Source: Pseudomonadota bacterium
GTDB lineage: Bacteria > Pseudomonadota > Alphaproteobacteria > JBCCHK01
DNA: 64,000 nt
Direction: 5' to 3'
NCBI GenBank assembly: GCA_039028835.1
Contig: JBCCHK010000008.1
Coordinates: forward strand, 6,698 to 70,697
The notes under the pieces were generated by a model that was not told the DNA's origin, did not search any database, and saw only the letters and a program-made list of their open reading frames with translations. Position numbers and translations under genes: made by a program. Numbering within the stretch: the stretch's first letter is position 1; each line of letters opens with the position of its first letter. Below are positions 1,893 through 54,513 of the stretch, one piece after another.

Positions 1893-1904
1893 GGATTTTA
1901 TATA

Positions 1905-3454: not shown

Positions 3455-3464
3455 CAGGCGTTGG

Positions 3465-7906: not shown

Positions 7907-7986
7907 ATTGGCATAAAACTTGCTCGGTATCATAACGGATCGGGGAAAATCCCTCTCTGGCCCTAACAACCCGTCGAACAAAAAGG

Positions 7987-9651: not shown

Positions 9652-9682
9652 TCGTATCTTTAACTGTTAGGGAGTCATCGAT

Positions 9683-10183: not shown

Positions 10184-10198
10184 CGACCTTTTGACGCT

Positions 10199-11194: not shown

Positions 11195-11259
11195 GGTAGT
11201 CCGTTATACTAATCCATTGTTTGCGGGCAACTTTTTCTGCCCCTATAGTGTAGGCTAAG

Positions 11260-14407: not shown

Positions 14408-14415
14408 ATTTTTAT

Positions 14416-20698: not shown

Positions 20699-20803
20699 CT
20701 TGATGAACTGGGGGACTATGGGGCGCGTGGGCCTGTAGTTCAGCGGTAGAACCCGCCGCTCATAACGGTGTTGTCGCAGGTTCGAATCCTGCCGGGCCCA
20801 CCA
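20699..20803 (+). repeat. Left copy of an ~105-bp imperfect direct repeat (tRNA-Met plus ~30 bp of leader). It brackets the nar island.
   Basis: 'tcttgatgaactgggggactatggggcgcgtgg...ttcgaatcctgccgggccc' is ~88% identical to the segment at 32710-32814. Confidence 0.7.
20729..20803 (+). tRNA. tRNA-Met (anticodon CAT), elongator type.
   Basis: A manually folded cloverleaf fits: acceptor GGGCCTG/CGGGCCC, U8A9, D-arm GTTC-AGCGGTA-GAAC, anticodon loop CTCATAA, T-arm GCAGG-TTCGAAT-CCTGC, discriminator A and encoded CCA. The paired 1:72 position argues against an initiator. Confidence 0.8.
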
Positions 20804-25094: not shown

Positions 25095-25108
25095 GAGGAT
25101 ATAAAAAG

Positions 25109-30453: not shown

Positions 30454-30464
30454 GGAATAGGACA

Positions 30465-31172
30465 ATGAAGACATTAAAAGTTTTGGGCGTTCTGCTGACG
30501 TATCCCTCGGCCGATTTGATGAAAGCTTTACCGGAGTTGCAGAAAATCCTGAAAAAAGAAAAATGGTTGTCAGAAAAATCGTTAAAAACGCTTGGCCATT
30601 TGATGGATTGGATGAGTGCGCAGGACTTGCTAGATTTACAAGAAGAGTTTGTTGCGCTGTTTGATCGTACGCCGTCGCTTTGTTTACATTTGTTTGAGCA
30701 TGTCCATGGCGACTCGCGTGATCGCGGGCAGGCTCTGGCTGATCTCTCAGAGATTTATAAAGACGCAGGTCTGCTTATTAATACTGAAGAAATGCCTGAT
30801 TTTCTGCCGCTGTTTTTAGAGTATCTTTCTGTGATTGATGCGCAAGAGTCACGCCAGAACTTGGGAGAGATTGCCAATGTTCTGGGTGTTTTAGCCAGGC
30901 GTTTGAACAGTAGGCGCTCACCTTATGCTTGTGTGTTTGAAGGGCTCATTGAGGCGGCGGCCCGTAAGCCTGATAAAAAGGCTGTTGAAGCGGCCCTTAA
31001 AGATGCGACCGGTAAGGCAGGGACGTTTGAGGAGCTGGATCAATCATGGGAAGAGCAGAACGCTTTCGAGAACTCCTTACAAACCATAGAGCAGAATATG
31101 AGCGGCGGTTGTCCAAAGGCCGAGGCCATGTTGGCGCAGATGAACCTACCAAAAGAAAACGAGGAGGTATAG
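30465..31172 (+). CDS. narJ: Nitrate reductase molybdenum cofactor assembly chaperone.
   Basis: Its position between narH and narI, its size and the TorD-like N-terminus support the call. Confidence 0.8.
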   Translation: MKTLKVLGVLLTYPSADLMKALPELQKILKKEKWLSEKSLKTLGHLMDWMSAQDLLDLQEEFVALFDRTPSLCLHLFEHVHGDSRDRGQALADLSEIYKDAGLLINTEEMPDFLPLFLEYLSVIDAQESRQNLGEIANVLGVLARRLNSRRSPYACVFEGLIEAAARKPDKKAVEAALKDATGKAGTFEELDQSWEEQNAFENSLQTIEQNMSGGCPKAEAMLAQMNLPKENEEV

Positions 31173-31176
31173 AGCT

Positions 31177-31851
31177 GTGGATTTCTTTTTATTTCAGATT
31201 TTCCCTTATATTGCGATCGCTGTTTTTGCGTTGGGGAGCATTCTGCGGTTTGACCGTGATCCTTATTCGTGGCGCTCAAAATCTAGCCAGCTTCTAAGAC
31301 GAAAACAATTCATTGTTGGTAGTATTCTGTTTCATTGCGGGATTATCACGATTTTGCTCGGGCATATTGTGGGGCTACTAACCCCGATTGCGGTGTTTGA
31401 TGCTGTGGGCATTTCCCATGGTGTAAAGCAGATTTTGGCGATGACGGCTGGCGGGATTGCGGGAGTATTTTGCTTTATCGGGCTGGTTATGTTGCTTCAT
31501 CGTCGTTTGGTTGATCCGCGTATTCGTGCGACCAGTTCTTTTTCGGATATTGCTGTATTGGTTTTGCTTTTGGCGCAGCTTTGTCTGGGGATGTATACGA
31601 TTACGGAATCGATGAAGCATTTAGACGGGCATGAAATGGTTAAGTTCATGGAATGGGCCCAGCATATCGCAACACTCCGTGGTGGGGCTCATCATTATGT
31701 TTCTGATGTGGCGTGGGTATTCAAAGTGCACCTGGTGCTGGGGATGTTTATTCTCTTTGTCTGGCCCTTCACAAGGCTTGTACATGTGTTCAGTGCACCG
31801 GTCGGATTTGTGTTCCGGCCTTATCAAATTGTTCGTAAAAGGGAGATTTAG
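31177..31851 (+). CDS. narI: Respiratory nitrate reductase gamma subunit (cytochrome b).
   Basis: It is 224 aa with five TM helices carrying the conserved His ligands. Confidence 0.85.
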   Translation: MDFFLFQIFPYIAIAVFALGSILRFDRDPYSWRSKSSQLLRRKQFIVGSILFHCGIITILLGHIVGLLTPIAVFDAVGISHGVKQILAMTAGGIAGVFCFIGLVMLLHRRLVDPRIRATSSFSDIAVLVLLLAQLCLGMYTITESMKHLDGHEMVKFMEWAQHIATLRGGAHHYVSDVAWVFKVHLVLGMFILFVWPFTRLVHVFSAPVGFVFRPYQIVRKREI

Positions 31852-31854
31852 GAG

Positions 31855-32616
31855 ATGGTTGCTGCGCCCAGTATTAGCGTAAATGGTATCAAAATTACAC
31901 CTCAGCAAATTAATGCGGAGGCGCAATATCATCCGGCTGAAAGTTTTTTTAGTGCCCAATATGAAGCCACGCAGGCTTTGGTCGTACGGGAGCTTTTAAT
32001 CCAGCGGGCGGTTGATTTGGGGCTTTGTCAACACGACGCAGGGATCAAAAATCCGGATGACGTTTTGGTAGCATTGTTTGAAAAAGAAATAGTGCTTCCT
32101 GAAGCAGATGAGCAAACATGCCGGCGTTTTTATGAGCAGAATAAAAAGCGATTTTTTACTGCACCCTTATTCGAAGCAGCGCACATCTTATACCCAGCCC
32201 CGCCGGGGGATAAGCAGGCCCGCGACGCTGCCTTAGAAAAAGCACAAAAAGCGTTGGTGCGGATTATGCAAAAGCCAGAGTGTTTTAAGACAATTGCGAG
32301 AACAGAGTCGGCGTGTTCATCTGCCAAAATGGGCGGGCATCTTGGGCAGATCACCAAAGGGCAGACGGCGCCCGCTTTCGAGGCAGCATTGCTTGATATG
32401 CAAGAGGGGGATCTTTCCGAACAGCCCCTAGCCAGTGAGTTTGGCTATCATTTGATTAAGGTTCATAAACGTCTTGAAGGCAAACAATTGCCTTTTGGTG
32501 CCGTGCATGAATGGATTGTCGATTATCTGCAGCAGCAAAGCTGGCAGAGGGCTTTTCGTCAGTATGTTCAGCTTTTGGCAGGACAGGCCAAGGTAAGCGG
32601 ATTCCAGCCAGGCTGA
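31855..32616 (+). CDS. PpiC-type (parvulin) peptidyl-prolyl cis-trans isomerase, nar-associated.
   Basis: A parvulin domain ('SAKMGGHLGQITKGQTAPAFEAA', 'FGYHLIKV') is present. From memory, this is the same position as the PpiC-type gene after narI in Pseudomonas nar clusters. Confidence 0.65.
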   Translation: MVAAPSISVNGIKITPQQINAEAQYHPAESFFSAQYEATQALVVRELLIQRAVDLGLCQHDAGIKNPDDVLVALFEKEIVLPEADEQTCRRFYEQNKKRFFTAPLFEAAHILYPAPPGDKQARDAALEKAQKALVRIMQKPECFKTIARTESACSSAKMGGHLGQITKGQTAPAFEAALLDMQEGDLSEQPLASEFGYHLIKVHKRLEGKQLPFGAVHEWIVDYLQQQSWQRAFRQYVQLLAGQAKVSGFQPG

Positions 32617-32709: not shown

Positions 32710-32814
32710 TCTTAATGAACAGGGGAACGATGGGGCGCGTGGCCTTGTGGTTCAGCGGTAGACCCCGCCGCTCATAACGGTGTTGTCGTAGGTTCGAATC
32801 CTGCCGGGCCACCC
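32710..32814 (+). repeat. Right copy of the ~105-bp direct repeat (tRNA-Met-like plus leader) bracketing the nar island.
   Basis: It aligns to 20699-20803. Confidence 0.7.
32741..32814 (+). tRNA. tRNA-Met(CAT)-like sequence, probably a degenerate copy or pseudo-tRNA.
   Basis: It is ~90% identical to the tRNA at 20729-20803 and has the same CAT anticodon loop. However, the acceptor stem (GGCCTTG vs CGGGCCA) has a G1:A72 and a C3:C70 mismatch, the D-stem has a mismatch, and there is no encoded CCA. Confidence 0.45.
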
Positions 32815-41830: not shown

Positions 41831-42539
41831 TAGCGCGTGGGTATGATGATAAGGGGTCTTTAGGATGCGATAAGGCGGGCGTTTGGGCAAGGGGGTCGCA
41901 AGGGGGTCGTAAGAGGGTTTGGATAAGAGGGTTTGATGATCGTAGGCGGCGTGCTGAGGCGTTATAATTTTATAAAAAGAATAAAATAAAGAATAATCAA
42001 GGAGTTAAAAATTCATGTTTTTATTGACAAATGAGAAATTTTAATTCATTATAACAAAATAATGATGCCAAGATAAACCTACTTATCTCAAGATAAAAGG
42101 TCATCCTCGCATCAGCCGGCCCCACCTCGCCAGTCCCGGTTTGTACATTCATAACAATGTATGGCTCTGTTTTTCATATTGCTGATCGATCCCTTTTCAT
42201 ATCCTTTAGGGATCGATGAGCAAAACAAAGGGAGCAAACAAGGGCGATGTCATCTTAGGGCCGGTAGCCTCCTACTCTTTACAGTCTACCTAGACGTTTG
42301 ATGGCTTGTTTGTCGTGCCTTCGTGCACGACGAGCACCGTAAGAAGTGCGTAAGCGTTTCTTACATCTAATGAGCAACGAATAGACCTTAGGCGCTGGTG
42401 TGCCGGTTTTTTGTTCCGTGGCGAGCGTAATCTTATCAGTCATTTTCTTAAGGTGATGACGCTAGCACCACCAACAGAAAAAAGGTACCCCTCTCGCTTA
42501 AGGTCTATTCATCCAACAAAATAGAAAAAGGTTGTATGA

Positions 42540-43397
42540 ATGAGTACACAAATCAACAAATGGTTCATCGAAGAGTTTCAAACAGATGTCCATGCCGCTT
42601 ATCAACAGCAAGGGGCGCGTCTGCGTCATACCGTGAGAACAAAAAATAATGTCCGCGGCGAAAAAACACACTTCAACACAGCAGGTATCGTCGGTGTTGG
42701 CGATAAAGCACGCGGCGGTAACGTCCCCATTATCACCGGCGGCCGAGGCCGAGTCGAGTGCACCCTGATTTCAAAATATGGCGGCGACTATGTGGAAGAT
42801 ATCGATGAGCTGAAAACCAATATCGATGAAAAACAAGTCATCGCCATGTCTTTTGCTTGGGCGCATGGTCGCCATACGGACAATTTGATTATCGAGGCGA
42901 TCACCCAAGACACCAATACGCACCGGGTCAACGATGCAAACATCGCCACAGGCCTTAAGTCTGCCCATGTTCAAGAGGCGCTGGAAAAACTCAACCAAGC
43001 TGATGTGCCGGATGACGGCGCGCGCACGGCACTTGTCACGCCCCATGCGTGGGAAGAGCTTTTGGCTATCGATGCCTTTGCCAAGGCGGATTATATCGGC
43101 AAGGAGTCCTTGCCGTGGCTTGGTGGCTCGGAAGCCAAACGGTGGCGCAACTGTCTGTGGATGATGCATACCGGTTTGCCGATCAATACGGAAAACAAAG
43201 TCGCAAGCTGTGTGATTTTTCACAAAACTGCGGTCGGTCATGCGATTGGCAAGGAACTGGAAGCACAATGGTCTTGGGAAAATACAAAATCCGCATGGTT
43301 TTTGAATACCCGCATGTTGCAAGGGGCCTGTCTGATCGATCCTAAAGGTGTGGTGAAGATCCATGTCAAAAACAATCAACCCATCAGCACCTCATAA
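42540..43397 (+). CDS. Phage major capsid protein (T7 gp10-like).
   Basis: The C-terminal blocks 'VIFHKTAVGHAIGKEL' and 'MLQGACLIDPKGVVKIHV' parallel T7 gp10 'LFMHRSAVGTVKLRDL' and 'AMGHGGLRPEAAGAVVFKV', as recalled from memory. Confidence 0.6.
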   Translation: MSTQINKWFIEEFQTDVHAAYQQQGARLRHTVRTKNNVRGEKTHFNTAGIVGVGDKARGGNVPIITGGRGRVECTLISKYGGDYVEDIDELKTNIDEKQVIAMSFAWAHGRHTDNLIIEAITQDTNTHRVNDANIATGLKSAHVQEALEKLNQADVPDDGARTALVTPHAWEELLAIDAFAKADYIGKESLPWLGGSEAKRWRNCLWMMHTGLPINTENKVASCVIFHKTAVGHAIGKELEAQWSWENTKSAWFLNTRMLQGACLIDPKGVVKIHVKNNQPISTS

Positions 43398-43421
43398 CGA
43401 TCTATAGAAAGGACCTAATCA

Positions 43422-43667
43422 ATGGCTTTTAGTAAAAAAAATCTCGCGGCCATCGCGTACGCAGATGGACAAACCACTTGGCAATACAAAACCGATGATG
43501 ACGCAAATGCGATCCAGGGAAAAGGTTATTTTAATGATGCCTCCCATATGCTCAAGGAAAAGGATTTCATCCTTATCTCCTATAACGGCGGGTTTGCGAT
43601 TTATCAAGTCAAGACCAGCACCGGCGGTGCTGTGACGTTGGAAACGGCCAAGATCACGTCCGAATAG
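43422..43667 (+). CDS. Small phage protein (possible capsid decoration or minor capsid).
   Basis: It is 81 aa and sits in the gp10B-equivalent position. It has no motifs. Confidence 0.35.
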   Translation: MAFSKKNLAAIAYADGQTTWQYKTDDDANAIQGKGYFNDASHMLKEKDFILISYNGGFAIYQVKTSTGGAVTLETAKITSE

Positions 43668-43755
43668 CACATACAAAAACACAAAGGGGGAGGGAGAATC
43701 GGGTCTTTATCTCCTTACCTGATATCTTCCTCCCCCGACGTGCCCACCGGAGTCG

Positions 43756-44331
43756 ATGACAATGAATCCCTATCAACTATGCTCGCGCGCCTTGATTAAA
43801 ATCGGCGCCAACCCAATTCACAGTTTTCAAGAAGGCACAGCCGAATCAGACGTGGCGGGTCTTCTTTATGATATGACTCGCGATGGGTTGTTGTCCATGC
43901 ATCCGTGGTCTTTTGCCACGGCCCATAAATCTTTGCCGCGCCTACAAGCGCCACCCCTTGCCGATTACAGCTATGCCTATCAACTTCCTGTTGATTTTTT
44001 GCGTGCCCTTTCGGTGGGGAATCACGATCTGAACACGGCGCAAAGGGGTGATTACCGTATCCATCAAAACCTGATCCATACGGACCTCACACAAGTCATG
44101 CTCAGTTATATTTTTAGGCCGTCTGAGGATTCATTACCGCCTTTTTTTCTGGGAGCGCTTATCACGCGCCTCGCGGCGGAGTTTTGCTTGCCAATCACCG
44201 AAAATACGTCGCGCGCCAAAGAGCTTTACAGACTCGCCCAAGACGAGCTGCGCCTTGCTAAGGGAATCGATAGCCAACAGCAAATCCCGCGTCAGCTTAG
44301 TGACTTTACCCTCATTAACGTACGAGGATAG
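43756..44331 (+). CDS. Phage tail tubular protein A (T7 gp11-like).
   Basis: It is 191 aa against 196 aa for T7 gp11. The N-terminal pattern 'ALIKIGANPIHSFQEGTAESDVAGLL...HPWSF' matches T7 '[28 protein letters not shown]...RGWTF'. Confidence 0.6.
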   Translation: MTMNPYQLCSRALIKIGANPIHSFQEGTAESDVAGLLYDMTRDGLLSMHPWSFATAHKSLPRLQAPPLADYSYAYQLPVDFLRALSVGNHDLNTAQRGDYRIHQNLIHTDLTQVMLSYIFRPSEDSLPPFFLGALITRLAAEFCLPITENTSRAKELYRLAQDELRLAKGIDSQQQIPRQLSDFTLINVRG

Positions 44332-44336
44332 CCATC

Positions 44337-46067
44337 ATGGGTCGTGCCCCCGTACAACAATTCAGTTTCACCTCAGGTATGTTGGATGACTCGCTGGAGG
44401 CTCGCTCTGATCTTGCGTCGTACTACAGCGGTGGGCGTGAAATCCTTAACATGCTGATCTTACCCCAAGGAGGACTTTATACCCGTAGCGGTCTTGCCTT
44501 CATCAGCGAGCAACCCGAAGCCTTTGCGGGTGCTCGGCTCGCACGTTTTGAGTTTTCACCAGCGCAGCGATATTTGCATGTATTTACTCATAGAAAACTT
44601 CATGTTTATTACCAAGATAAACCCGTTGCGACTATCGCCACACCCTGGACAACGCAGCAATTAGCGCAGATAGATTGGGCACAGTCACTCGATACGATGA
44701 TTGTCGTGCATCCCGATGTGCCACCCCAGAAAATTATGCGCGCCGGCGCGCATAACAGCTGGTCTTGTGGGCCGCTTACCCTTAAAAACGTTCCTAAGCA
44801 TACGTTTGCTGGCACGCGCAAAGAAGCGGCGTGGTCTGATGCGCGAGGTTGGCCCCGCAGCGTGTGCCTTTATCAGGGGCGGATGTATTTTGGTGGATCA
44901 AAAGGTCGTCCGCAAACCATCTGGGGTTCCAGTTCTAATCATTTTTTTGATTTTAGGGTCACGAGCGGCCAGCCATTGGATGATGACTCGGTGGAGATGA
45001 CATTGGATAGCGATCAGATTGCTACCTTTGAGCAACTCTATCCTCGCGCCGGGTTGCTTGCGTTTACGACTAGCGGCTTGTTTTTCCAAAAAGAAAGTCC
45101 AGTCACGCCAAAAAACTTTATTTTTAGCCGGCACGTCAATTTGCCAGCCGCAAGGATTAAACCCGTCGAGTTAGAAGGGGAGATCCTGTTCGTCCGTCGC
45201 GGCGAGGACGGCCACCATCAATCGGTTCATGAACTGGTATTTGATGAGGGTCGGCAGATTTACACAACCCAGGACATTGCGCTGCTTTCATCAAGGCTCA
45301 TGCGCGCGCCGATCCGTATGGCGGCCCGTTATGGTGATGAATCACAGTCCAATCATCATCTTTATATCGTGAATGGGCGCGATGGTACGCTCGCTGTTTT
45401 TAATTCACGGCGCAAACAAAACGTCAGCGGCTGGAGCTTGCTCCAGACTGCAGGAAAATTCAAAGATATCGCTGTGCTCGGAACGCATGTCTACTTTCTT
45501 GTCGAGCGCACAATTAATAATAAACGCAAGGTTTTTATAGAAAAAATGGATCCTGAACATAGATTGGATTTCTCAATACGGCAAACATCTAAAACAGCAA
45601 AGACTGACTGGTCTGGATTATCTCATCTTTCTGGCATGACAGTTCATGTTATGGGCAATGGGGTCGATATGGGGGTTCAATCTGTTGAAGATGGGCAAAT
45701 ACGAACGCCCCATCCTGTCAATGATATGCAGGCCGGTTTGGCCTTTGATTGGGCGGTGGAGACCATGCCGCTTGCGGCCAAACTTGCTGATGGCTCTCTT
45801 GTCGCGGCGCGTCACCGCATCGTGCAAGCAGGCATTTATGTGCAAGACACGATTACGCTTAAGGTCAATGGCCGGGCGGTATCGTTTGCACGACTCGATA
45901 AACCAGGGATATTGGATGCACCACCAACGCCTTTTACGGGATTAAAAACCGTTCGGTTTTTTGGCTGGTCAGGCGGGGCTCACTCGCGGGGCGGCGGTAC
46001 GGTGCGATTAACAGGAACATCAACGGGACCGGCAACGATCCTATCTATAACAGCGGAGGTATCCTAA
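44337..46067 (+). CDS. Phage tail tubular protein B-like (gp12 position).
   Basis: It is a large protein immediately after gp11-like and translationally coupled to it. The call rests on synteny only. Confidence 0.45.
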   Translation: MGRAPVQQFSFTSGMLDDSLEARSDLASYYSGGREILNMLILPQGGLYTRSGLAFISEQPEAFAGARLARFEFSPAQRYLHVFTHRKLHVYYQDKPVATIATPWTTQQLAQIDWAQSLDTMIVVHPDVPPQKIMRAGAHNSWSCGPLTLKNVPKHTFAGTRKEAAWSDARGWPRSVCLYQGRMYFGGSKGRPQTIWGSSSNHFFDFRVTSGQPLDDDSVEMTLDSDQIATFEQLYPRAGLLAFTTSGLFFQKESPVTPKNFIFSRHVNLPAARIKPVELEGEILFVRRGEDGHHQSVHELVFDEGRQIYTTQDIALLSSRLMRAPIRMAARYGDESQSNHHLYIVNGRDGTLAVFNSRRKQNVSGWSLLQTAGKFKDIAVLGTHVYFLVERTINNKRKVFIEKMDPEHRLDFSIRQTSKTAKTDWSGLSHLSGMTVHVMGNGVDMGVQSVEDGQIRTPHPVNDMQAGLAFDWAVETMPLAAKLADGSLVAARHRIVQAGIYVQDTITLKVNGRAVSFARLDKPGILDAPPTPFTGLKTVRFFGWSGGAHSRGGGTVRLTGTSTGPATILSITAEVS

Positions 46068-46069
46068 TC

Positions 46070-46465
46070 ATGGGTGGAAGTTTTATCTATAAGGCCCTTC
46101 CCTTGGCCCTTGGCGCAAGCCAACAAAACCAAGCAATACGGGCGCAAGAGCAGCAAGCACGTTTGCAAGCATCCCAGCGCCAGCTGACGCTCGCGCAACG
46201 TAAACAAGAACAGCAGCGTAAATTGCGTGAGTCTCTAGCTACACAAAACAATCGGTATGCGGCCATGGGCGTAAGCCGAAGAAGTGGCTCGGCGCACCGC
46301 CTTGCACGCGCAACGCAAAGCGACTCCCATCGCGCGCTTGGCCTGCTCACGCAAAAAGGCGAGAACGAAGATACTCGCCATCGCCTTACCTTACAAGGAC
46401 TCAAACACAAGCGACATTCTTTGTATAGAAAATCTATGTTTGATCTTCTCAAAAGAGAGCGCTAA
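46070..46465 (+). CDS. Phage hypothetical protein with a Gln/Arg-rich coiled N-terminus.
   Basis: Its position after the tail tubular genes is the only support, and it has no motifs. Confidence 0.35.
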   Translation: MGGSFIYKALPLALGASQQNQAIRAQEQQARLQASQRQLTLAQRKQEQQRKLRESLATQNNRYAAMGVSRRSGSAHRLARATQSDSHRALGLLTQKGENEDTRHRLTLQGLKHKRHSLYRKSMFDLLKRER

Positions 46466-46474
46466 CGGCCTACG

Positions 46475-46681
46475 ATGAATAAAATACGCAAAACCTATGA
46501 AGAAGGCTTACAAGAAGGACGAATTGAAGCCATGAAAAGTACCCTTGACCGGCACGATCTTCGCCTAACCGATCATGCGCGACGTCTGCAAATCCTAGAA
46601 CGGCTGTTTTGGGCATGCGTTGGGATTGTCGCCTTTGTGCAGGTCTGGCCAGACCTGCAACGTTTTCTTTTAGGTGATTGA
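46475..46681 (+). CDS. Small phage membrane protein (holin or antiholin candidate).
   Basis: A coiled N-terminus is followed by a single C-terminal TM 'LFWACVGIVAFVQVW'. It overlaps the endolysin start. Confidence 0.35.
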   Translation: MNKIRKTYEEGLQEGRIEAMKSTLDRHDLRLTDHARRLQILERLFWACVGIVAFVQVWPDLQRFLLGD

Positions 46682-47241
46682 CAATGAGCATAGAAAAAAG
46701 GCCACAAATAAACACAGAAACGATGATTGATGATGTGATCTCCCGTGAGGGCGGTTTCGTCAATCATCCTGATGATCGGGGCGGGGCGACAAACTATGGT
46801 ATTACCCAGGCAACTCTCTCGGCTTGGCTTGGCCGGCGTGCGCGGCTCGCCGAAGTACAGAATCTTGATATCGATACTGCACGGGCGATTTATGCGAGGC
46901 GATATCTGTCAGCGCCGCGCATCGATACGCTCACTCAAAGGATTGTGCCCTTTGTTTTTGATACGGCGGTATTGCATGGTCCGCGCAGTGCGATCCGGCT
47001 TCTTCAGCGGGTGCTGAACCGGGCAGGATTTGGCAAGGTTTGTGTCGATGGCGTGATCGGCCCGCAAACCCGCAAGGCTTGCGAGGCCGCCGATCGTGTG
47101 ATGGGCCCTTACCTGCTTGATGCGTTGTGTGAGCAGCGCCGGGCAATCTATCACCGCATTGTTGCGAGAAATCCTTCACAAAAGGTTTTTCTTCGTGGCT
47201 GGCTTAACAGACTTAAACATTTTAAGGATGAAACATCATGA
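46678..47241 (+). CDS. Endolysin of the GH108 family with a C-terminal PG_binding_3 domain.
   Basis: 'VISREGGFVNHPDDRGGATNYGITQATL' is the GH108 N-terminal signature with its catalytic Glu. 'VDGVIGPQT' is peptidoglycan-binding-like. Confidence 0.75.
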   Translation: MTMSIEKRPQINTETMIDDVISREGGFVNHPDDRGGATNYGITQATLSAWLGRRARLAEVQNLDIDTARAIYARRYLSAPRIDTLTQRIVPFVFDTAVLHGPRSAIRLLQRVLNRAGFGKVCVDGVIGPQTRKACEAADRVMGPYLLDALCEQRRAIYHRIVARNPSQKVFLRGWLNRLKHFKDETS

Positions 47242-47831
47242 ATCTACTTGCAGGACTACAAGGACTTCTCACCGGCGGCAAGTTCGCCCTCCCTGAGATT
47301 GCCAAGATCATCAAACCGCTCGCTGGTGATCGCGGCCAACGCGATCAAGCGGCGCATCAAGAAAATATCGCAACCTATGACCAATTCAAAGCGGAGTTTC
47401 AAAACAGCGGGATGACCTGGTTTGATCGTGTCGTTAATGGTTTTAATCGCTTGCCGCGGCCGGTTATTGTAAGTTTGGTTATTCTATATTTTATTCTGTC
47501 TTTTGTGGATCCGTTGCTGTTTCAACAGATCAACAATGGATTGGATAGCGTGCCTGATAATATGTGGATTATCGCGGGCGGGATTATCAGCTTTTATTTT
47601 GTCGTGCGTGAGATTAACCACAAGCGCATGTCGCAATCAGCCAAAGAGTTTGACCAGCGCATGGCGCGCCATGATGCGCTGCAAGAGCGGCGCCAAAACC
47701 GGCAACGCCAAGCACAAGAGATACATCAAGAGGGCGCGCAATTTGATCCGGCGCAAACCGATCATGACTTTGCCAATGAGCAAGCAAACCACGGGCAAGA
47801 ATCGCAGCCAGACGAGCCACGCGCGGGCTAG
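47238..47831 (+). CDS. Phage holin (3TM/GTA-holin-like membrane protein).
   Basis: The TM helices are 'RPVIVSLVILYFILSFV' and 'MWIIAGGIISFYFVV', followed by a charged C-terminal tail. It is coupled to the endolysin. Confidence 0.5.
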   Translation: MNLLAGLQGLLTGGKFALPEIAKIIKPLAGDRGQRDQAAHQENIATYDQFKAEFQNSGMTWFDRVVNGFNRLPRPVIVSLVILYFILSFVDPLLFQQINNGLDSVPDNMWIIAGGIISFYFVVREINHKRMSQSAKEFDQRMARHDALQERRQNRQRQAQEIHQEGAQFDPAQTDHDFANEQANHGQESQPDEPRAG

Positions 47832-48721
47832 CCCATAGGCTTGGCACGCATTTTTGTGCGCTTGCCTAGCACGTGGGCGACTTGCGCTATTGCGGGCGAG
47901 TCGAAGGATAAGAGAGACAAGACAGACTGGTCATAGTGACTAAATGCGGTGGCTTCTTCACAAGAGCAGCCAAACCATACCGGTTGGCGGTGGATCGTTG
48001 TCTCCATGTGGGCGCGTGGTTGGTTGGTGGTCGCGGCCGCAAGGGAGAGGGCTGGCGGTGTTTCGTGCTTGTTCTTCCCTTGGCGAGTATAGACGAGTCC
48101 TTGTTGTTGGGCTGCACGACTGGACTTCGCCCAGGTTATTTTTTTATGCTGGCAGTGGATCAGCACGCACGTTCGGCTGGTATGCTCAATCCAGCGCAGG
48201 GCCATGGCAACCAGTGATACGCCATAGTGATCGGCGCAGGCGCTCAAGTCTTCAAGGTCAATATGCTCATTAGCGGGTAGCGTAGAGCGCAGGTCATCGA
48301 TGGGCATGAGCAAAGCCGAGGCGAAGTTGTTGGCCTGATGTTCTACTTGCGAATAGGTGGCCCAGGTAAAATCCTCATCGCGGCAATGTAACCCTTTGGG
48401 ATAGGTGGCGCGGTGCATGAGGTAATGGCCGAACTCGTGGGCGAGGGTGAAGCGGATGCGCCCTTGGGATTTGATATCGTGGTTATAGATAATGCCCCAT
48501 CCTTTCTCGCCGCGCGGATCAGGGATGAGCCCGCCATCAAAGCCGGGCAAGGATGCCCCTTTGATCATGGTGATGGCATCAGTGGGGTATTTAAGAGCAG
48601 TATAGGATTTTGCAAGACGTGCGACGTTAACGGGAAACCTATTCTCGCCGGTGGTGCGTTTGTGGGCAAGCGAGATGATGCTTGCCCACCTGTGTGGCGG
48701 ATGGGAGGCCGGTTGCGTCAT
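47828..48721 (-). CDS. ImmA/IrrE-family metallopeptidase (DUF955) with an extended Cys-containing C-terminus.
   Basis: The HEXXH motif 'LAHEFGHYLMH' is present. It lies downstream of an XRE regulator on the same strand. Confidence 0.75.
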   Translation of the reverse strand: MTQPASHPPHRWASIISLAHKRTTGENRFPVNVARLAKSYTALKYPTDAITMIKGASLPGFDGGLIPDPRGEKGWGIIYNHDIKSQGRIRFTLAHEFGHYLMHRATYPKGLHCRDEDFTWATYSQVEHQANNFASALLMPIDDLRSTLPANEHIDLEDLSACADHYGVSLVAMALRWIEHTSRTCVLIHCQHKKITWAKSSRAAQQQGLVYTRQGKNKHETPPALSLAAATTNQPRAHMETTIHRQPVWFGCSCEEATAFSHYDQSVLSLLSFDSPAIAQVAHVLGKRTKMRAKPMG

Positions 48722-48744
48722 GGTGTTGTTGTTGACCGAAGTTA

Positions 48745-49152
48745 CTACCAGAGTTCCGCAATTTTACGGATTTTCTTTTTCACATCGGGTGAGAGTTTAC
48801 GATATTTGCGAAAGAACATTTGATCGACCGCATCGGCTTCCTTGATTTTATCTTCGTCATCGAGAAGATAGTTAATTGTGACGCCAAGGGCAGCGGCAAT
48901 TTTCAAGAGTTTGTCTGCGGACGGGTGTGGGAGGTTATTGTTTTCTATTTCCCAAATGTGGCTTTTGCTGGAGTCCGTCAAGTTGGCAAGGGTGTCCAGG
49001 GTGAAGCTCTTTTCTTTGCGCAGCTTGTAGATTTTATCGCCGAGGGTCTCTCTTCCTCTGCTGATGATGCGCTTGGCGGGTGGCCGCCCGCGCGGGCGCT
49101 TGGGTTTGCTTGGTTTTAGTATGGGCTTGAGTCTTGTGGCTGCTTTGGGCAT
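48745..49152 (-). CDS. XRE-family HTH transcriptional regulator (phage repressor-like) with an N-terminal AT-hook-like basic segment.
   Basis: The HTH is 'FTLDTLANLTDSSKSHIWEIENNNLPHPSADKLLKIAAALGVTINYLL'. The N-terminus carries 'KPKRPRGRPPAKR'. The start is trimmed to an internal Met. Confidence 0.7.
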   Translation of the reverse strand: MPKAATRLKPILKPSKPKRPRGRPPAKRIISRGRETLGDKIYKLRKEKSFTLDTLANLTDSSKSHIWEIENNNLPHPSADKLLKIAAALGVTINYLLDDEDKIKEADAVDQMFFRKYRKLSPDVKKKIRKIAELW

Positions 49153-49718
49153 GAGTATCTCCTCGTCATCATGGGTCAAGGCTACGTTACTGGCTTTTGA
49201 TAAAGGCGCATACCTCAAGGGGGCTTTCCAGAGGCTTACCTATTCACTTTACATAAATCAAAATACCCGATGAACGCAAGGGTTTTCTTTTGATTTTTGC
49301 GATTTTCGTCCATTTTATCACGCATTTTTTCATTATTTTTTCCAAAAGATGAAAATAATTTTATATTTTAAACAATACACCTATGGCTCGGGCATGTAAG
49401 GCCTTTATTTCGACTCCCTTCCCGTCATTCCTGCGTAGGCCGGAATCCAGGAGATGGTGCAACCCACACGATATCTGCAAAGACATGCGCGTCGATGTTA
49501 GCAAGCGCCAATGGATCATGAACCCTTGGTCAAGGCCGGTCTTGGCCAGACGGGCAGGATTCCGTGTTGTATCTGTGCTTGTGGTCACCCACGTGAGGTC
49601 CCGAGTAAGCACCGTGGTTGTTGCTAAGGCCGCGCCTTGCCGGTCTCTTGCGCTACCTCCCTAATCGATCTTTAATGGAAGGCTGATAGCTCACCTTTTC
49701 CACAACCCTGAGGCTTTT

Positions 49719-50870
49719 ATGCAAGCCCTTGAGATTAAAGACCTTTATCGCCAGGCGCGGCGGCGGGTACCGCGCATGTTTTTTGACTATGCGGATTCCG
49801 GGTCGTGGCGCGAGGCCACCTATGCCGCGAATGAGCGAGACCTACAAGATATTCTTTTTCGTCAGCGGGTTGCGGTTGATATCGAGGAGCGAACAACGAG
49901 CGGCACGATGGTCGGGCAATCGGTGCGGATGCCGGTGGCTCTCTCGCCGGTTGGCATGTGCGGCATGCAGTATGCGGATGGGGAGATTCACGCGGCGAAG
50001 GCGGCGCAAGACTTTGGGGTGCCCTTTTGTTTATCGACGATGAGTATTTGTTCGATCGAGGATGTCGCGGATCACACGGATACGCCTTTTTGGTTTCAGC
50101 TGTATGTGATGCGGGATCGGGACTTTGCCGCAAGTCTGATTGCCCGGGCACGTAGGGCGGCGTGTTCGGCCTTGGTTCTCACGTTGGATTTACAGGTCTT
50201 AGGCCAGCGGCATAGGGACTTGCGCAATGGGCTTGCGGCGCCGCCAAAGCTTAACCTCAATACTCTTTCCCAGCTGGCGTCCTGTCCGATGTGGTGTTGG
50301 CGGATGCTGAGGACCTCGCGGCGGTCGTTTGGCAACATCGTCGGTCATGCCAAGGGGGTCACGAACTTGAGTTCCTTAGCCGCTTGGACGCACGAGCAGT
50401 TTGACCCCACCCTTTCGTGGGAGGATGTAGGCTGGATTCGTGGGCAGTGGGAAGGTCCGTTGATTCTTAAGGGGATCATGGATCCAGAAGACGCCCGCGC
50501 GGCGGTGGCGGCGGGGGCAGATGCAATCATTGTCTCTAACCATGGTGGTCGTCAGCTTGATGGGGCGCCTTCATCTATTGCGGCGTTGAGTGAGATTGTG
50601 GCGGCGGTCGGCAATCAGATCGAGGTGCATGTCGATGGTGGTATTCGTAGTGGGCAGGATGTGTTGCGCGCCTTATGCCTGGGGGCGAGGGGTTGTTATA
50701 TCGGTCGCGCGTATCTCTATGGGCTGGGGGCAGGCGGTGAGATGGGCGTGACACGCGCGCTGGAGATTATAGAAAACGAGCTCTCGATCACCTTAGGTTT
50801 GTGTGGCGAGCGGGATATCAACACTGTGGGTCGCCATAACTTGGCCTACGTACCAGCCTTTATGGGCTAG
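49719..50870 (+). CDS. lldD: FMN-dependent alpha-hydroxy acid dehydrogenase (L-lactate dehydrogenase LldD-like).
   Basis: 'SNHGGRQLDG' and a TIM-barrel FMN-binding region are present. The GC content is host-like. Confidence 0.75.
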   Translation: MQALEIKDLYRQARRRVPRMFFDYADSGSWREATYAANERDLQDILFRQRVAVDIEERTTSGTMVGQSVRMPVALSPVGMCGMQYADGEIHAAKAAQDFGVPFCLSTMSICSIEDVADHTDTPFWFQLYVMRDRDFAASLIARARRAACSALVLTLDLQVLGQRHRDLRNGLAAPPKLNLNTLSQLASCPMWCWRMLRTSRRSFGNIVGHAKGVTNLSSLAAWTHEQFDPTLSWEDVGWIRGQWEGPLILKGIMDPEDARAAVAAGADAIIVSNHGGRQLDGAPSSIAALSEIVAAVGNQIEVHVDGGIRSGQDVLRALCLGARGCYIGRAYLYGLGAGGEMGVTRALEIIENELSITLGLCGERDINTVGRHNLAYVPAFMG

Positions 50871-51129: not shown

Positions 51130-51165
51130 TTGACAAATGGTAAATACTGCGGTATAGCATGAACA
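51130..51165 (+). promoter_or_regulatory. Sigma70-like promoter element TTGACA-N17-TATAGC.
   Basis: The hexamers and their spacing were read directly from 'agTTGACAaatggtaaatactgcggTATAGCatg'. Its orientation is antisense to the downstream minus-strand membrane gene, so its function is uncertain. Confidence 0.3.
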
Positions 51166-51235
51166 TAATGTCTTTTTTATTGAATAATAATGCGAAAAAG
51201 CCAAGGTTCTGCTTGGGGGTGGTTTTCTTTGCTAC

Positions 51236-52105
51236 CTACAGCCCCCATAGGCGGGCACTCCTGAGGCATTGCAAGCCACAAAGGCCGAAGATGAGAGCGC
51301 TGAACACTGTCCAATCGACCTCGAAGAAAAAACGCTCAAAGCGAACATCGGGAATAGGAGCACTGCCGAATATTGCTACCAGAAACTCGCTGAAGAAGAG
51401 GAAAGAAAGTAAGGCCGTGATAATCAGTAAGGGGCGTGCAAACCTTGGTGTGGGAACGAGAAAGGTTATACAAGTCATGCAAGCGAGCATAAGAACGAAC
51501 CAAATCAAAAACGCATCCGAAACTTGTAAGACAAAAAAAGAAAACGCAACCAAACCAAAAAAAGTCAGATACAAGATTTTTACGACGCGACCAGAGTCAC
51601 CACCAGGTGAGAGACCGATCCAGCTTCTCCGTTGTAGGCCGTTATACCCGCGCATATTCATGCGATCCAGTCGTCTCATGGCCTGTGCGCGGGAATTATC
51701 ATCAGAAATAAACTTGGAAAGGTATTCCCGCCAGATGAGCACAACGATGAATATGAGCGGAAAACCGATTGTTTGTAATTTTAATCCACGGTCGTACGTC
51801 TCACCCATCTGCGATACAGACCAAGCGAGCCCCGCCACGGCGAGCAAGGTTGTGGCTTTATTCAGCCAAGGCTTAAAGGTCGGCACAGGGTAAAAGGACC
51901 AGAATGCGATGCCGCTCCAAATGAAGAAGATCATCATGACCAAGAAAAGCCATCTCGTCAGTTCGATCGTTGGGGCTAGGGTCATGTGGGAAACCGCGAG
52001 GATCACAAGGGCGAAGACAGCCCAGTACAGGATCAAGCCCGCCCAGCGACGGCCAGGATTCTTGATTTTAGGGCGTTCTAGTTTCTTAGGGCGCTCTAGT
52101 TTCAC
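51236..52105 (-). CDS. Hypothetical polytopic membrane protein (~8 TM). The N-terminus may be shorter.
   Basis: Strongly hydrophobic TM segments are present throughout. It lies in a low-GC segment divergent from the 781-aa ORF. The annotated N-terminus 'KLERPKKLERPK' derives from a 17-bp tandem DNA repeat and may be upstream regulatory DNA. Confidence 0.45.
   Translation of the reverse strand: MKLERPKKLERPKIKNPGRRWAGLILYWAVFALVILAVSHMTLAPTIELTRWLFLVMMIFFIWSGIAFWSFYPVPTFKPWLNKATTLLAVAGLAWSVSQMGETYDRGLKLQTIGFPLIFIVVLIWREYLSKFISDDNSRAQAMRRLDRMNMRGYNGLQRRSWIGLSPGGDSGRVVKILYLTFFGLVAFSFFVLQVSDAFLIWFVLMLACMTCITFLVPTPRFARPLLIITALLSFLFFSEFLVAIFGSAPIPDVRFERFFFEVDWTVFSALIFGLCGLQCLRSARLWGL
52066..52099. 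repeat. 17-bp tandem direct repeat ×2 (tagggcgYtctagtttc) in the divergent intergenic region or the N-terminus of the membrane gene.
   Basis: Read directly from 'cttagggcgttctagtttcttagggcgctctagtttc'. Confidence 0.8.
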
Positions 52106-52167
52106 GACATAACCTTTTATTTTTTTTAACTACTTTATCAAAAAAATTTAACTTTAGGAGTTTTATC

Positions 52168-54513
52168 ATGGCCTATTCACAGTTTCAAAGCGGCGAGAAA
52201 AAGGTCGACTTAGAAAACGATATCGGGGCTAAGGTTCTGGAGGAGGTGGCATGGGCTCTAGTGAGTGGTGTAGAAGCTGCTGCCAAGGATGTCGTCGGTG
52301 AAAAAGGCGAATTCATCGATGGTGGTCCTAAAACACGCGCTGGTAAAATTGCCAGTCAGATCACGCGATACGGCATTTTCTTTGCATCATTCTTCACGGG
52401 TGTGGGGGCTGTCGCAAGAGTTATGCAGGGTGCGCGATTGGCCCGTGCGTTACACGGTACACGATTAGCGGGTGCGGTGCCTAAGATCCAGACTGCGGGA
52501 CGCGCTATCGAGAAGGAACGAGCTTTTATCGCCGCTGATGCCACTGATTTTCTTACGCGTGAGGAACCCTATGACACCAGTGAAAGGGTTATGAGCATAA
52601 CAAGAGGTCTTAATGTCAATCGCTTCGGCGATAATATCCTCAAGCACGCAGATAAAGACTCGCTCGTCAGAAAATTACTGGAAAATGAAGAAGTTCAAAA
52701 GACTGTTAAGTCTGCGGATATCATCTTGGGAAGCACTGTTATAGAAAATATCGCTGAAATAATAGCCGGGGATGACATCCCCCCCAGGGATGTAACCAAC
52801 GTTATCATTAACGTAACAGCACAAAGTTTTGATAAGAATATCAGGCAAGCGATCAAAGAAGGAAAGATCGAAGAGCCCGTCGACAATCTCTCACGATTGT
52901 CCGGTCTTTCCCCGGAGGAGCTGATGGACCTGCACGAAGGAAAAACAGACCCCGTCCAGATTGTTGCCATCAATGAAGCCCTGACCCTCGGCCCAAAAGC
53001 CTATACCACCATCGCCGAGGTCACAAAATCAGCCGGCCCCCTCGGCCAGCTTCAGGCATACAACACCCACAGCACCTTTACCCTGATGCAAGGCATCGCC
53101 AGAAAAGAACCCAAGCAAATCAATCAAGCAATGCAAAACCTTGACCGAACATCCCAAGCCCAGCAAGCCATCGGCTTGACCACAGACAAAAACAAGCAAC
53201 GCGAGATTGTCTTTGCGTGCCTTGGTGATGAGGGAGTCGATATGACCTATCACCTGGTGCAATCAGCGAGCAAAATCGCACAAGAAAAACCTGACAGATT
53301 CGGGGAGTTCATCCATGATGCCAACAGGTCGATAGATACCGAAGAACTTGGCAACGTCCATAAAGGATACCTCACTGATGATCCTTATGACCGCTTTGAG
53401 GACTATCGATCCTTACGCGAAAGGCAGAATAAATTCGATCCGGAACAAGGTACGCCTCTTCAGATCAATGATGTGCCAGAAAATCTCATTCCCGTTAAAA
53501 TGAAACGCGCACAGCAAGCCCAAGAAAACGCACAAGAAAGCGCACAGAAAAACACGCCAGCAGGGCAACAACAAAACCAATCACAACCAGCCAAAAACCA
53601 GCAACAAGCCCAAGCCCAGCGCTCCGCACCCAACGCGGGGGCAAAGCCTGGCCAGCAGTATTCAGCCGCCGATCAGCGGCTCATCGCCCTTGCCCAAGTC
53701 ATCGCCCAAGCGAAGGCCCAGCAGCAACAAAACCAAGCCCAAGCGCAACCCCAGACAGACACAAAACCCAATCCACAGCGCATCGGCCAGGCTGCCGCCC
53801 GACACCTCGCAGAGCTTGAGCAGGCCGCCGCGCAAAGGCGCCAAGCCCGCGCCAAAATCGCCGAACGACATGATGCTCAGACCATGGCCAAAGAAACAGA
53901 ACTCATCAAAGCCATCACAGAAGGTCAGCGCAGAGCCGACGCCCAGGCAAGAGCCGCCCAAGCCCAACAGCAACAAGCCAACGAGGCGCAAGCAACGCAA
54001 CCTTTCGAAGAGGAACAAGCCCAAGAGCGATACCCCGCCGGATCACGATACCGCCCCGCGCCACGTTCAAAGACCTTAGGCGGCGGTAACGTCCAAGCGG
54101 GCCGCAACCGCGGACGCAACCTGATGGCGTCGGTCGGAGGCTCCTCCTCTTCCTCTACAGCATCAAGCCGCCCCCAACGCCCGGCCAGCCAGCAACAGAA
54201 TGACAACCGTGATGATAACCGTTCGGACAGCACACGTTACGTCCAAAACAGGCGTAAGGCCAATTCCAATGCGCCCTATCATCCGCTTTACAATCCCTAC
54301 CGGCGGGAGCCTTCCCGTTCGGGCGGCGATACCCAAAACAGGCCCTCCCGCACCCCATCGCGGCGGCGCGGGCTTAGCGGTTATGAACGATATCGCGATC
54401 ATATCAGTGACCGAAGCCCTTCGAGTCCGTCAAATAAAGCAAATAAGTCAAGTCGCTCGCGTTCCCGCAGCACCTACTCGGGCTATGGGCGGTTTGGAGG
54501 ATCCGGACGGTAA
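52168..54513 (+). CDS. Large hypothetical protein (781 aa). It has a globular N-terminal ~450 aa, a Gln/Ala-rich coiled region and an Arg/Ser/Gly-rich basic disordered C-terminus.
   Basis: A strong RBS (taggag-N7-ATG) precedes it. No signal peptide is present. The low-complexity central region is 'AQAQQQQNQAQAQPQ...' and the C-terminus is 'SRSRSRSTYSGYGRFGGSGR'. It has no recognisable catalytic motif. Confidence 0.55.
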   Translation: MAYSQFQSGEKKVDLENDIGAKVLEEVAWALVSGVEAAAKDVVGEKGEFIDGGPKTRAGKIASQITRYGIFFASFFTGVGAVARVMQGARLARALHGTRLAGAVPKIQTAGRAIEKERAFIAADATDFLTREEPYDTSERVMSITRGLNVNRFGDNILKHADKDSLVRKLLENEEVQKTVKSADIILGSTVIENIAEIIAGDDIPPRDVTNVIINVTAQSFDKNIRQAIKEGKIEEPVDNLSRLSGLSPEELMDLHEGKTDPVQIVAINEALTLGPKAYTTIAEVTKSAGPLGQLQAYNTHSTFTLMQGIARKEPKQINQAMQNLDRTSQAQQAIGLTTDKNKQREIVFACLGDEGVDMTYHLVQSASKIAQEKPDRFGEFIHDANRSIDTEELGNVHKGYLTDDPYDRFEDYRSLRERQNKFDPEQGTPLQINDVPENLIPVKMKRAQQAQENAQESAQKNTPAGQQQNQSQPAKNQQQAQAQRSAPNAGAKPGQQYSAADQRLIALAQVIAQAKAQQQQNQAQAQPQTDTKPNPQRIGQAAARHLAELEQAAAQRRQARAKIAERHDAQTMAKETELIKAITEGQRRADAQARAAQAQQQQANEAQATQPFEEEQAQERYPAGSRYRPAPRSKTLGGGNVQAGRNRGRNLMASVGGSSSSSTASSRPQRPASQQQNDNRDDNRSDSTRYVQNRRKANSNAPYHPLYNPYRREPSRSGGDTQNRPSRTPSRRRGLSGYERYRDHISDRSPSSPSNKANKSSRSRSRSTYSGYGRFGGSGR

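Follow-up and report, generated by a model that had tools for sequence, protein, structure and literature searches.

The nearest cultured phages to the locus described here are podophages of Pelagibacter, Methylophilales and Vibrio with genomes of 32–35 kb, and protein identity to them is 23–45%. EXVC031P and HTVC100P/203P (Pelagibacter), the 32-kb Vibrio podophages and the podovirus tail structure 8ck1 stand near the locus by sequence only, and the Methylophilales phage MEP301 is the annotated example. The genes of MEP301 are arranged in the order terminase, portal, scaffold, capsid, small protein, tail tubular protein A, tail tubular protein B, a 161-amino-acid (aa) protein, large internal proteins, fibres, holin and endolysin, and its annotation contains no RNA polymerase. 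This T7-type order without an annotated RNA polymerase indicates that the virion module is of T7 type, in a phage that does not belong with the classic lytic T7-like ones. We analysed a window of 64,000 nucleotides (positions 6,698 to 70,697 of contig JBCCHK010000008.1, assembly GCA_039028835.1) from an alphaproteobacterium of the lineage JBCCHK01. The open reading frame (ORF) listing and profile searches showed a plus-strand run of phage genes at 42540–47831, comprising capsid, 81-aa protein, adaptor, nozzle, gp14-like protein and a lysis cassette. A CapH/CapP-type repressor and peptidase pair lies beside it. With a probability of about 60%, we consider this block to be a cryptic prophage arm, namely the orphaned late (right-hand) arm of a temperate podophage, lying next to a relic lysogeny switch.

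The block shares with the MEP301-type temperate podophages the order capsid, small protein, adaptor, nozzle and gp14-like protein, with the lysis genes at the end of the late arm. Sister loci of the block extend the likeness with a portal (PF12236), Bbp19 and a T7-type scaffold. The difference lies in what is missing from the window relative to MEP301 and to the prophages L121 (complete-looking) and L038 (intact-looking). The whole stretch that precedes the capsid gene in those phages is absent, that is, the small and large terminase subunits (TerS and TerL), two small pre-portal proteins, the portal, Bbp19 and the scaffold, and so are the gp15/gp16 ejection proteins and the tail fibre. The gp14-like gene runs straight into a three-gene lysis cassette, and the phage gene order is kept. 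Of the features that mark the Autographiviridae, the adaptor (gp11) and nozzle (gp12) genes were found 3′ of the capsid gene. From the set of gp8-type portal, gp9-type scaffold and gp14–16 core in one element the window has only the gp14-like protein, and no phage-type single-subunit RNA polymerase was found in the window. The original prediction, a defective T7-like remnant with capsid, tail tubular, lysis and XRE/ImmA genes, agrees with these results in several respects. The ORF listing and profile matches place the named genes at or very near the positions it gave, and the profile searches (PHROG, Pfam, PDB 8ck1) recovered homology to podoviral structural proteins. A T7 adaptor/nozzle-type tail is supported by phrog_394, phrog_376 and the connector and nozzle of 8ck1, and the block is, as proposed, a phage-derived late-gene block that is unable to make virions by itself.

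The genomic setting is that of host housekeeping genes. The block sits between lolA and the gene of a flavin mononucleotide (FMN)-dependent dehydrogenase (FMN_dh, 49719–50870). The left flank holds gyrB, an EPSP-synthase-family gene, ispE, rho and lolA, and the right flank holds the dehydrogenase gene and hisD. Logan, which assembled the same reads separately, also spans the lolA–capsid junction, and a misassembly of the metagenome-assembled genome (MAG) is thereby excluded. The lower G+C content and AT-rich edges described earlier were confirmed: the G+C content of the block is 0.507 compared with 0.56–0.58 in the flanks, and AT-rich stretches lie near ~41960–42090 and 49285–49380. The G+C content at third codon positions (GC3) is 0.49–0.55 in the block and 0.63–0.67 in the host genes, and this un-ameliorated GC3 favours a fairly recent arrival of the block.

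The gene content of the window was surveyed by Pfam scans of about 50 longer non-nested ORFs (≥120 aa, most of those present) and by tblastn with phage proteins. Among the scanned ORFs, no portal, terminase, replication gene or phage-type integrase was found, and the genes outside the block were housekeeping genes only. The predicted lack of portal and terminase is therefore right for the scanned ORFs of the window and wrong for the genome, where both occur at two further loci, L038 and L037. The sole recombinase among the scanned ORFs is XerC/D-like (948–1892, minus strand) and lies 40 kb from the block. A search for att sites as direct and inverted repeats around the block gave short chance-level matches only. 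The block thus resembles cryptic or defective prophages in being an incomplete set of phage genes that is fixed in the chromosome, with structural genes embedded among housekeeping genes, no mobility genes, an atypical G+C content and none of the terminase, portal, replication and integrase functions of an autonomous cycle. It differs from them in that its ORFs are unusually clean and the complementary arm is found elsewhere in the genome.

The small size and the presence of structural genes only had also suggested a phage satellite, either a phage-inducible chromosomal island (PICI) or a capsid-forming PICI (cf-PICI), or a tailocin-like relic. A satellite would be expected to carry an integrase, a replication module and att sites, whereas the block yielded neither an integrase nor a replication or primase gene, and neither att repeats nor a small terminase. 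A tailocin would have tube or sheath genes and no capsid; here, the capsid gene is present, sheath and tube genes are absent, and the tail is of the short adaptor/nozzle type. The gene order is that of the late arm of a full phage, and we regard both proposals as extremely unlikely.

Table 1. Features of the phage-derived block and the adjoining gene pair (positions in the window).
Feature	Position	Strand	Matches or basis
Sigma-70-like promoter, TTGACA-17-CATTAT, 10/12 matches	42024-42052	+	consensus match only
Conserved hairpin, stem AGCCGG/CCGGTT, loop CCCCACCTCGCCAGTC	42112-42143	+	unique in window, 0/100 shuffles; covariance model R1 26.7 bits
Major capsid protein, 285 aa	42540-43397	+	PF19821 Phage_capsid_2 2.5e-59; phrog_3437 8.8e-53; PDB 9eg4_A 2e-23
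81-aa conserved protein, function unassigned	43422-43667	+	phrog_18004 5.7e-12
Tail adaptor / tail tubular protein A (gp11 position)	43756-44331	+	phrog_394 6.3e-46; phrog_9239; PDB 8ck1_E 'Connector protein' 1e-4
Tail nozzle / tail tubular protein B (gp12 position), 576 aa	44337-46067	+	phrog_376 5.7e-117; MEM7047231 = AAF442_06235
gp14-like internal virion protein, short form, 131 aa	46070-46465	+	phrog_418 1.4e-6
68-aa protein with hydrophobic C-terminal stretch (by inspection), first gene of lysis cassette	46475-46681	+	weak phrog_1193 0.0036
Endolysin, GH108 muramidase + PG_binding_3	46678-47241	+	PF05838 8.9e-25; PF09374 3.6e-18; phrog_315 1.1e-44; NF040573 below cut-off
Holin, GTA_holin_3TM family, long charged C-terminal tail	47238-47831	+	PF11351 2.7e-17
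CapP / ImmA / IrrE-type M78 metallopeptidase, 297 aa	47828-48721	-	PF06114 1.5e-18; PADLOC capP 2.5e-58, profile positions 16-242 of 242
CapH / XRE-type helix-turn-helix (HTH) repressor	48745-49218	-	PF12844 4.7e-12; PADLOC capH 7.9e-27

The assignments in Table 1 are supported by comparison with related loci, which include three architectural types, A, B and C, read from tblastn maps and described below. The slot of the 81-aa gene is always the interval between capsid and adaptor (MEP301, L038, L121 and types A–C). In MEP301 the gene at the adaptor position, directly 5′ of the matched tubular B gene, is annotated as tail tubular protein A. The family profile of the nozzle matched PDB 8ck1_A 'Tail Nozzle' at 1.8e-88, and the match to PF25675 was sub-threshold. 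The 131-aa gp14-like protein aligns end to end with L9_133, L6_139 and gp27 of MEP301, while the longer phage forms have an additional Gly/Ala-rich insert. Since MEP301 and types A and B have forms just as short, it is not considered truncated. The 68-aa protein is possibly XhlA-like, and in types A and C an ORF of 60–68 aa likewise comes before the genes for lysozyme and holin.

The closer relatives of the block are all uncultured. Their nozzles are 45–59% identical to that of the window, and many of them lie on megabase chromosomal contigs. Species-representative genomes contained 27 related loci, in Rhodospirillaceae, Oleispirillum, Minwuia, Kordiimonadales, Kiloniellales and Emcibacter, with one distant locus in Steroidobacteraceae, and IMG/VR contained more than 550 related contigs. 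The closest nozzle (59%) belongs to L121 on a TARA scaffold. The genes of L121 are arranged in the order TerS, TerL, 217-aa protein, portal, Bbp19, scaffold, capsid, 86-aa protein, tubular A, nozzle, gp14, gp15, gp16, fibre and lysis genes, followed by host genes. The 27 chromosomal loci, the more than 550 viral contigs and the full prophage L121 show that integrated members of this podophage clade are common and not unusual. The earlier argument that T7-like phages are classically lytic, so that an integrated block is unusual, is not upheld: the capsid is of the PF19821 type, MEP301 has no annotated RNA polymerase, and the relatives are ordinary chromosomal prophages.

L121, L038 and type C are the closest relatives of the block. 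Type C is represented by two MAGs of 2.1 Mb (OZ240684 and OZ000551), in which a contiguous prophage-like element carries TerL and a CI-like repressor. These elements share the upstream hairpin of Table 1, weakly in L038. They are contiguous and look complete, carrying TerL, portal, scaffold, and gp15/16 or a fibre, and in this they differ from the block, which is a right arm only. The window capsid is 74% identical to that of L038 and 72% to that of L121. Across L121, L038 and type C, the identities to the window are 69–74% for the capsid and 56–59% for the nozzle, and the capsids of the others are 73–79% identical to one another. Compared with the domesticated-looking types A and B, the nozzle identity is only 48–49%. 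On these identities the block groups with the full prophages L121 and L038 and not with type A or B. Within the clade of L038, type C (L5/L39) and L121, the nozzle and tubular A of the window also diverge most by pairwise identity, and the capsid follows this pattern less cleanly.

The type C elements contain tandem pairs of a DUF6973 gene and a membrane-protein gene inserted between scaffold and capsid. The array (L039 12900–21788 and L005 1–7800 in OZ240684; L004 1–7800) repeats the pair at least 6 times in tandem, each time with a DUF6973 protein and a ~390-aa polytopic membrane protein, and a duplicated fragment of the scaffold 3′ end lies at L039 14889–14975. The pairs may be toxin/immunity cassettes. 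Within the phage collection, the best capsid match (45.5%) was MT838907.1 (H1), an unannotated 5-kb 'Bacteriophage sp.' from human faeces, which is an odd origin for a record related to marine alphaproteobacterial prophages.

Three related loci belong, by their accession numbers, to one MAG, AAF442: the window block (MEM7047228-236, contig 151449), L038 (contig 194306) and L037 (contig 149078, locus tags AAF442_08090-08120). L038 extends from TerS and TerL through portal, scaffold, capsid and nozzle to internal proteins of 718 and 1271 aa. L037 carries TerS, a 540-aa TerL, two small pre-portal proteins, portal, Bbp19 and scaffold, after which the Logan contig ends. The 540-aa protein (L37_540) had no Pfam match, yet its Walker A/B and nuclease motifs and its 72% identity to the TerL of L121 identify it as TerL. 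A nozzle search of the MAG found two nozzle genes only, which means that L037 has no nozzle of its own. In pairwise identity, the L037 portal takes an outlying position in the set of L038, L5/L39 and L121, like the nozzle and tubular A of the window. By this measure, the window block and L037 are both L121-like and most similar to the same full prophage, L121. Fibre genes and gp15/16 ejection proteins were not found at either locus.

We propose that one L121-like prophage was split by rearrangement or deletion, although two related prophages may instead have decayed in complementary ways. The operon would still be transcribable from the sigma-70-like promoter through the conserved 5′ hairpin. 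Since the portal, scaffold and terminase are absent in cis, the block alone would be unable to assemble or fill capsids, and it would supply at most a lysis cassette or spare structural proteins.

The presence of L038 in the same MAG raises another explanation, a helper-dependent or interfering module. L038 or an infecting relative would switch the block on, and the capsid and tail proteins of the block would complement or poison the assembly of that phage. The capsid, nozzle and tubular A of L038 are 58–74% identical to those of the block, and the retained clade-wide hairpin could respond to a phage-encoded factor. L038 itself matches the hairpin poorly (8 mismatches), and its GC3 of 0.76 compared with 0.64 for the host genes of the window points to a possible very recent arrival or binning error. 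This module is unlikely. As an observation on L038 itself, the GC3 values suggest that it may be a very recent acquisition or a mis-binned contig. L38_464 was considered as its integrase and rejected, being unlike a serine recombinase and showing a sliding-clamp-like motif by eye.

Like CapH/CapP switches, and also ImmR/ImmA and DdrO/IrrE, the repressor and peptidase pair shows full-length profile matches, an HTH repressor and an M78 peptidase with an IrrE/CapP-like C-terminal region, and the gene order HTH then peptidase. The start of capH is ambiguous: a TTG at 49218 gives 157 aa, and the Logan gene call from an ATG at 49152 gives 135 aa. In characterised systems, DNA damage leads CapP to cleave CapH, and the promoter region of such a pair is shared with its target operon, which is transcribed divergently (bioRxiv 10.1101/2022.04.27.489752). 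The window pair differs from them in having no attached divergent immune operon or integrase; the phage genes are convergent with it, and its divergent neighbour is FMN_dh. The GC3 of the pair is host-like (0.58–0.64, capP 0.64) compared with 0.49–0.55 in the block, which hints that the pair is of different origin from the block.

Homologues of the pair are at most ~45% identical and spread over phyla. They are frequent in IMG/VR prophage contigs, at 0.2–6 kb from the contig end. These CapP homologues in viral contigs were found with an alignment-based scan, and a scan with the CapP protein alone gave nothing useful. In about half of 16 contigs inspected, the order was capH, capP, a small ORF and an ORF of 450–480 aa; the one example of the latter tested (L140) is a large serine recombinase with a TP901-1 integrase match at 3e-24. 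Because homologous pairs in prophage contigs adjoin a serine integrase, the simplest reading is that the window pair looks like an orphaned prophage lysogeny switch whose integrase was lost. It would be the leftover DNA-damage switch of the lysogeny module, and the lost integrase would normally have been the next gene.

The pair directly adjoins an intact lysis cassette, and the cleavage of CapH by CapP-type peptidases after DNA damage (bioRxiv 10.1101/2022.04.27.489752) would suit an autolysis circuit, in which CapH/CapP represses the holin and endolysin genes and DNA damage releases programmed autolysis. A lysis circuit under ImmA/XRE control had been part of the original prediction, and the arrangement of the genes speaks against it. 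The pair is convergent with the lysis genes, capP and the holin gene overlapping by 4 nt at 47828–47831, whereas the targets of known pairs are divergent and use a common promoter region with them; in the window that place is taken by a metabolic dehydrogenase gene. The late operon has a single promoter-like site, 5–7 kb distant, the homologous prophage pairs flank an integrase and not lysis genes, and pair and block differ in GC3. When 49200–49720 was compared with the regions upstream of the capsid and lysis genes in search of a common CapH operator, the matches were AT-rich and only slightly above shuffles. A damage-inducible autolysis circuit is possible only in trans, for which no positive support was found, and we consider it very unlikely.

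The complementary gene content of the window block and L037 in one genome, with shared L121-like ancestry, allows a further explanation: a two-locus domesticated system like a gene transfer agent (GTA), in which both loci are co-expressed and form small podovirus-like particles that benefit the host. All ORFs of the block are intact, and it has its own promoter-like site and the conserved hairpin. RcGTA particles are long-tailed and siphovirus-like. RcGTA (Rhodogtaviriformidae) resembles the block in having phage-derived structural genes without replication or integration functions, several loci and a holin of the GTA_holin_3TM family, and types A and B resemble it in vertical inheritance under purifying selection. 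It differs in that its proteins are unrelated to those of the block, for which vertical inheritance, packaging and host regulation are putative. The distribution of genes over separate loci has a precedent, as the particle system of RcGTA is encoded across five loci (PMC9662315).

Type A is a cluster of 16–18 kb (~800–16300 in locus coordinates) found at L006 (also L014), L013 (Oleispirillum naphthae) and L015–L018, with partial contigs L012 and L020 and a similar locus, L023. The gene order is HTH gene, GcrA-like gene, fused pre-portal protein, portal, Bbp19, scaffold, two unknown genes, capsid, small protein, tubular A, nozzle, gp14-like protein, fibre, lysozyme and holin. The tblastn maps of these loci showed no TerL of the six types tested. 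The two unknown genes between scaffold and capsid (L6_413 and L6_303) were considered as hidden terminases and rejected, as they have no P-loop and no family matches. Neither gp15 nor full-length gp16 was found in type A, and a C-terminal fragment of gp16 is kept in L013, L020 and L023. The cluster adjoins glnA-glnB in five genomes (L006, L013, L016, L017 and L018), and no glnA/glnB match was found within the 21.9-kb locus of L023. The ratio of nonsynonymous to synonymous substitution (dN/dS; NG86, L006 vs L017) was 0.14–0.15 for capsid, tubular A and portal and 0.14 for glnA; overall, the core structural genes gave 0.14–0.21, near the glnA value. Some copies show decay, with a split portal in L017 and a lost lysozyme in L018.

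Type B was found in Minwuia spp., 'Rhizobiales' NRL2 and Kordiimonadales IMCC3096 (L009, L025+L040 in Minwuia CP180352 1637958-1674165, L028, L029, L031 and L032). In this type, the five-gene core from capsid to gp14-like protein stands alone, apart from other phage genes. A fibre–holin block, a small pre-portal homologue of 66–73 aa and a lone portal gene, the last read only in Minwuia sp. CP180352 (L040), are separated by luciferase-like, metallophosphoesterase, RPE65 and DUF899 genes. The same order of fibre block, host-like genes and core is seen across genera. The dN/dS (L028 vs L031) was 0.03–0.09 for capsid, 81-aa protein (0.03), tubular A and nozzle and 0.11 for the gp14-like gene, and the interleaved host-like genes gave 0.03–0.11 at similar dS. 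No terminase, full-length gp15/gp16, phage replication gene or integrase was found in the 20–36 kb around the type A and B loci. By synteny and dN/dS, types A and B look domesticated, and the type A cluster is possibly GTA-like. Podovirus-derived clusters like types A and B were not found described in our literature searches.

These relatives lend the two-locus system some plausibility, since type A is syntenic beside glnA-glnB in several Rhodospirillaceae and type B is interleaved with host genes. Vertical inheritance at a fixed locus under purifying selection is seen in the distant types A and B; for the window, the best nozzle match is at 59%. No close relative of the block was found at the same site, its nozzle sides with the full prophages and not the domesticated types, and it is not ameliorated, its GC3 lying ~0.1 under that of the host genes. 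Of a large terminase and a complete head-tail set, L037 contributes TerS, TerL, portal and scaffold, while no fibre or gp15/16 is assignable to either locus. With no TerL found near the type A and B clusters, DNA packaging is only putative even there, as are expression and particles of the two-locus system. Such a system is the main alternative to a cryptic arm and is, on balance, doubtful. We are equally hesitant about a wider claim, that the block together with AAF442_08090-08120, the glnA-side clusters and the Minwuia/NRL2/IMCC3096 clusters might form an undescribed class of domesticated short-tailed-phage clusters with a common RNA hairpin in the capsid leader.

On its own, the window block would be an ordinary cryptic prophage arm; the family context is less ordinary. 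At least two alphaproteobacterial lineages keep the capsid-to-gp14 core under selection that equals in strength that on the host genes nearby. To our knowledge and in our literature searches, all described gene transfer agents derive from long-tailed phages. If true, a short-tailed GTA or another use of a capsid-plus-nozzle assembly would be new. Related blocks are carried by the cultured strains Oleispirillum naphthae Y-M2 and Kordiimonadales IMCC3096, and also by a Minwuia thermotolerans genome.

The condition of the block bears on its origin as an orphaned prophage arm. All eight late ORFs are full length compared with their profiles, and the pseudogenes and truncations common in cryptic prophages were not seen. 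A leave-one-out test took the sites with at least 90% conservation among the remaining members of the family. For capsid, tubular A and nozzle, the window deviated at 4.6, 11.5 and 6.7% of these sites, and the intact-looking L038 at 3.4, 10.3 and 8.5%. The test gave no sign of relaxed constraint in these three window proteins, which suggests that the deletions are recent or that the genes are maintained. The nearest homologues of the block are only 57–74% identical in amino acids, so dS for the block would be saturated.

Several observations weigh against an orphaned arm. The 5.3 kb of late genes are tightly packed without pseudogene or frameshift, with only 10 nt between the gp14-like gene and the lysis cassette, and this is more orderly than usual random decay. 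The five-gene core from capsid to gp14-like protein is the very set kept under strong purifying selection in Minwuia-type genomes, so its retention in the window could be selected too. The GC3 of the two arms differs modestly (0.49–0.55 in the window, 0.57–0.63 in L037), and contig 149078 was read only as far as the scaffold gene of L037. The holin/capP junction fits a circular phage map and not a simple prophage map, so an extra event is needed, such as tandem lysogeny or a second element.

The sigma-70-like site upstream of the capsid gene is the likely start of a capsid-to-holin transcript. The hairpin lies ~60 nt 3′ of this site, and in type A and B relatives similar TTGACA promoters were seen by eye 5′ of the hairpin. 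One or two copies of the hairpin stand 5′ of the capsid gene in nearly all close relatives (L006 8125–8158; L004 about 8004–8035 and 8046–8075; L121 8034–8065). It consists of an outer stem of 5–8 bp, a 5′ loop strand C-M-Y-A-T-C, a short variable inner stem and a 3′ strand (A)GAC, and the two strands are conserved. In type A, the hairpin is 100% identical across genomes over 48 nt, while the flanking genes have dS of 0.3–0.8. Among 22 elements, which were pre-filtered for a stem of at least 5 bp, the outer stem was 87.7% paired compared with 64% in shuffles, and the covariation was 0.574 compared with 0.169 in shuffles (0/500) and at most 0.17 in slid controls.

The hairpin matched no Rfam family, and an Rfam search across 40.5–52.5 kb and in the relatives gave no credible match. 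Its covariance model found no match at E ≤ 0.1 in ~75 distant viral contigs and one weak match (L059, E 0.2). As the model matches only close relatives, the motif is specific to the close clade. In this phage clade, the covarying hairpin is a candidate for a new cis-regulatory RNA that would control the late genes. In the window, it has one inner-stem mismatch and lies 425 nt from the capsid start codon, compared with 54–220 nt in most relatives. The stretch 42144–42539 between the hairpin and the capsid start codon is ~300 nt longer than in relatives and holds 16-nt inverted repeats (42379–42394 and 42495–42510) and a 54-aa reverse ORF, and it may be a small insertion.

Some further features of the window lie outside the block. 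The 500-bp spacer that separates capH from the dehydrogenase gene has a REP-like palindrome, ATTCCTGCGTAGGCCGGAAT, at 49420–49450, which falls within a 93-aa ORF that is probably spurious. A second island of low G+C content (0.47–0.52) at 51159–54513 encodes two proteins, one of 289 aa on the minus strand, which is hydrophobic and apparently a membrane protein, and one of 781 aa (52168–54513) with a Q/A-rich middle and an R/S-rich tail, and neither had a match in Pfam, PHROG or PADLOC. The 781-aa protein was compared with the 783-aa post-holin protein of L005 as a possible counterpart and rejected, as BLASTP showed no similarity and L5_783 is gp15-like. One window protein matches Pfam 'Alph_Pro_TM', a sign that the host is an alphaproteobacterium. 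Two tRNA-Met genes with CAU anticodon (20729–20803 and 32740–32814) bracket a cluster at 22146–32616, which comprises the gene of a 982-aa major facilitator superfamily (MFS) protein, narGHJI and a peptidyl-prolyl isomerase (PPIase) gene, and the 3′ part of this cluster has a low G+C content (0.47–0.48).

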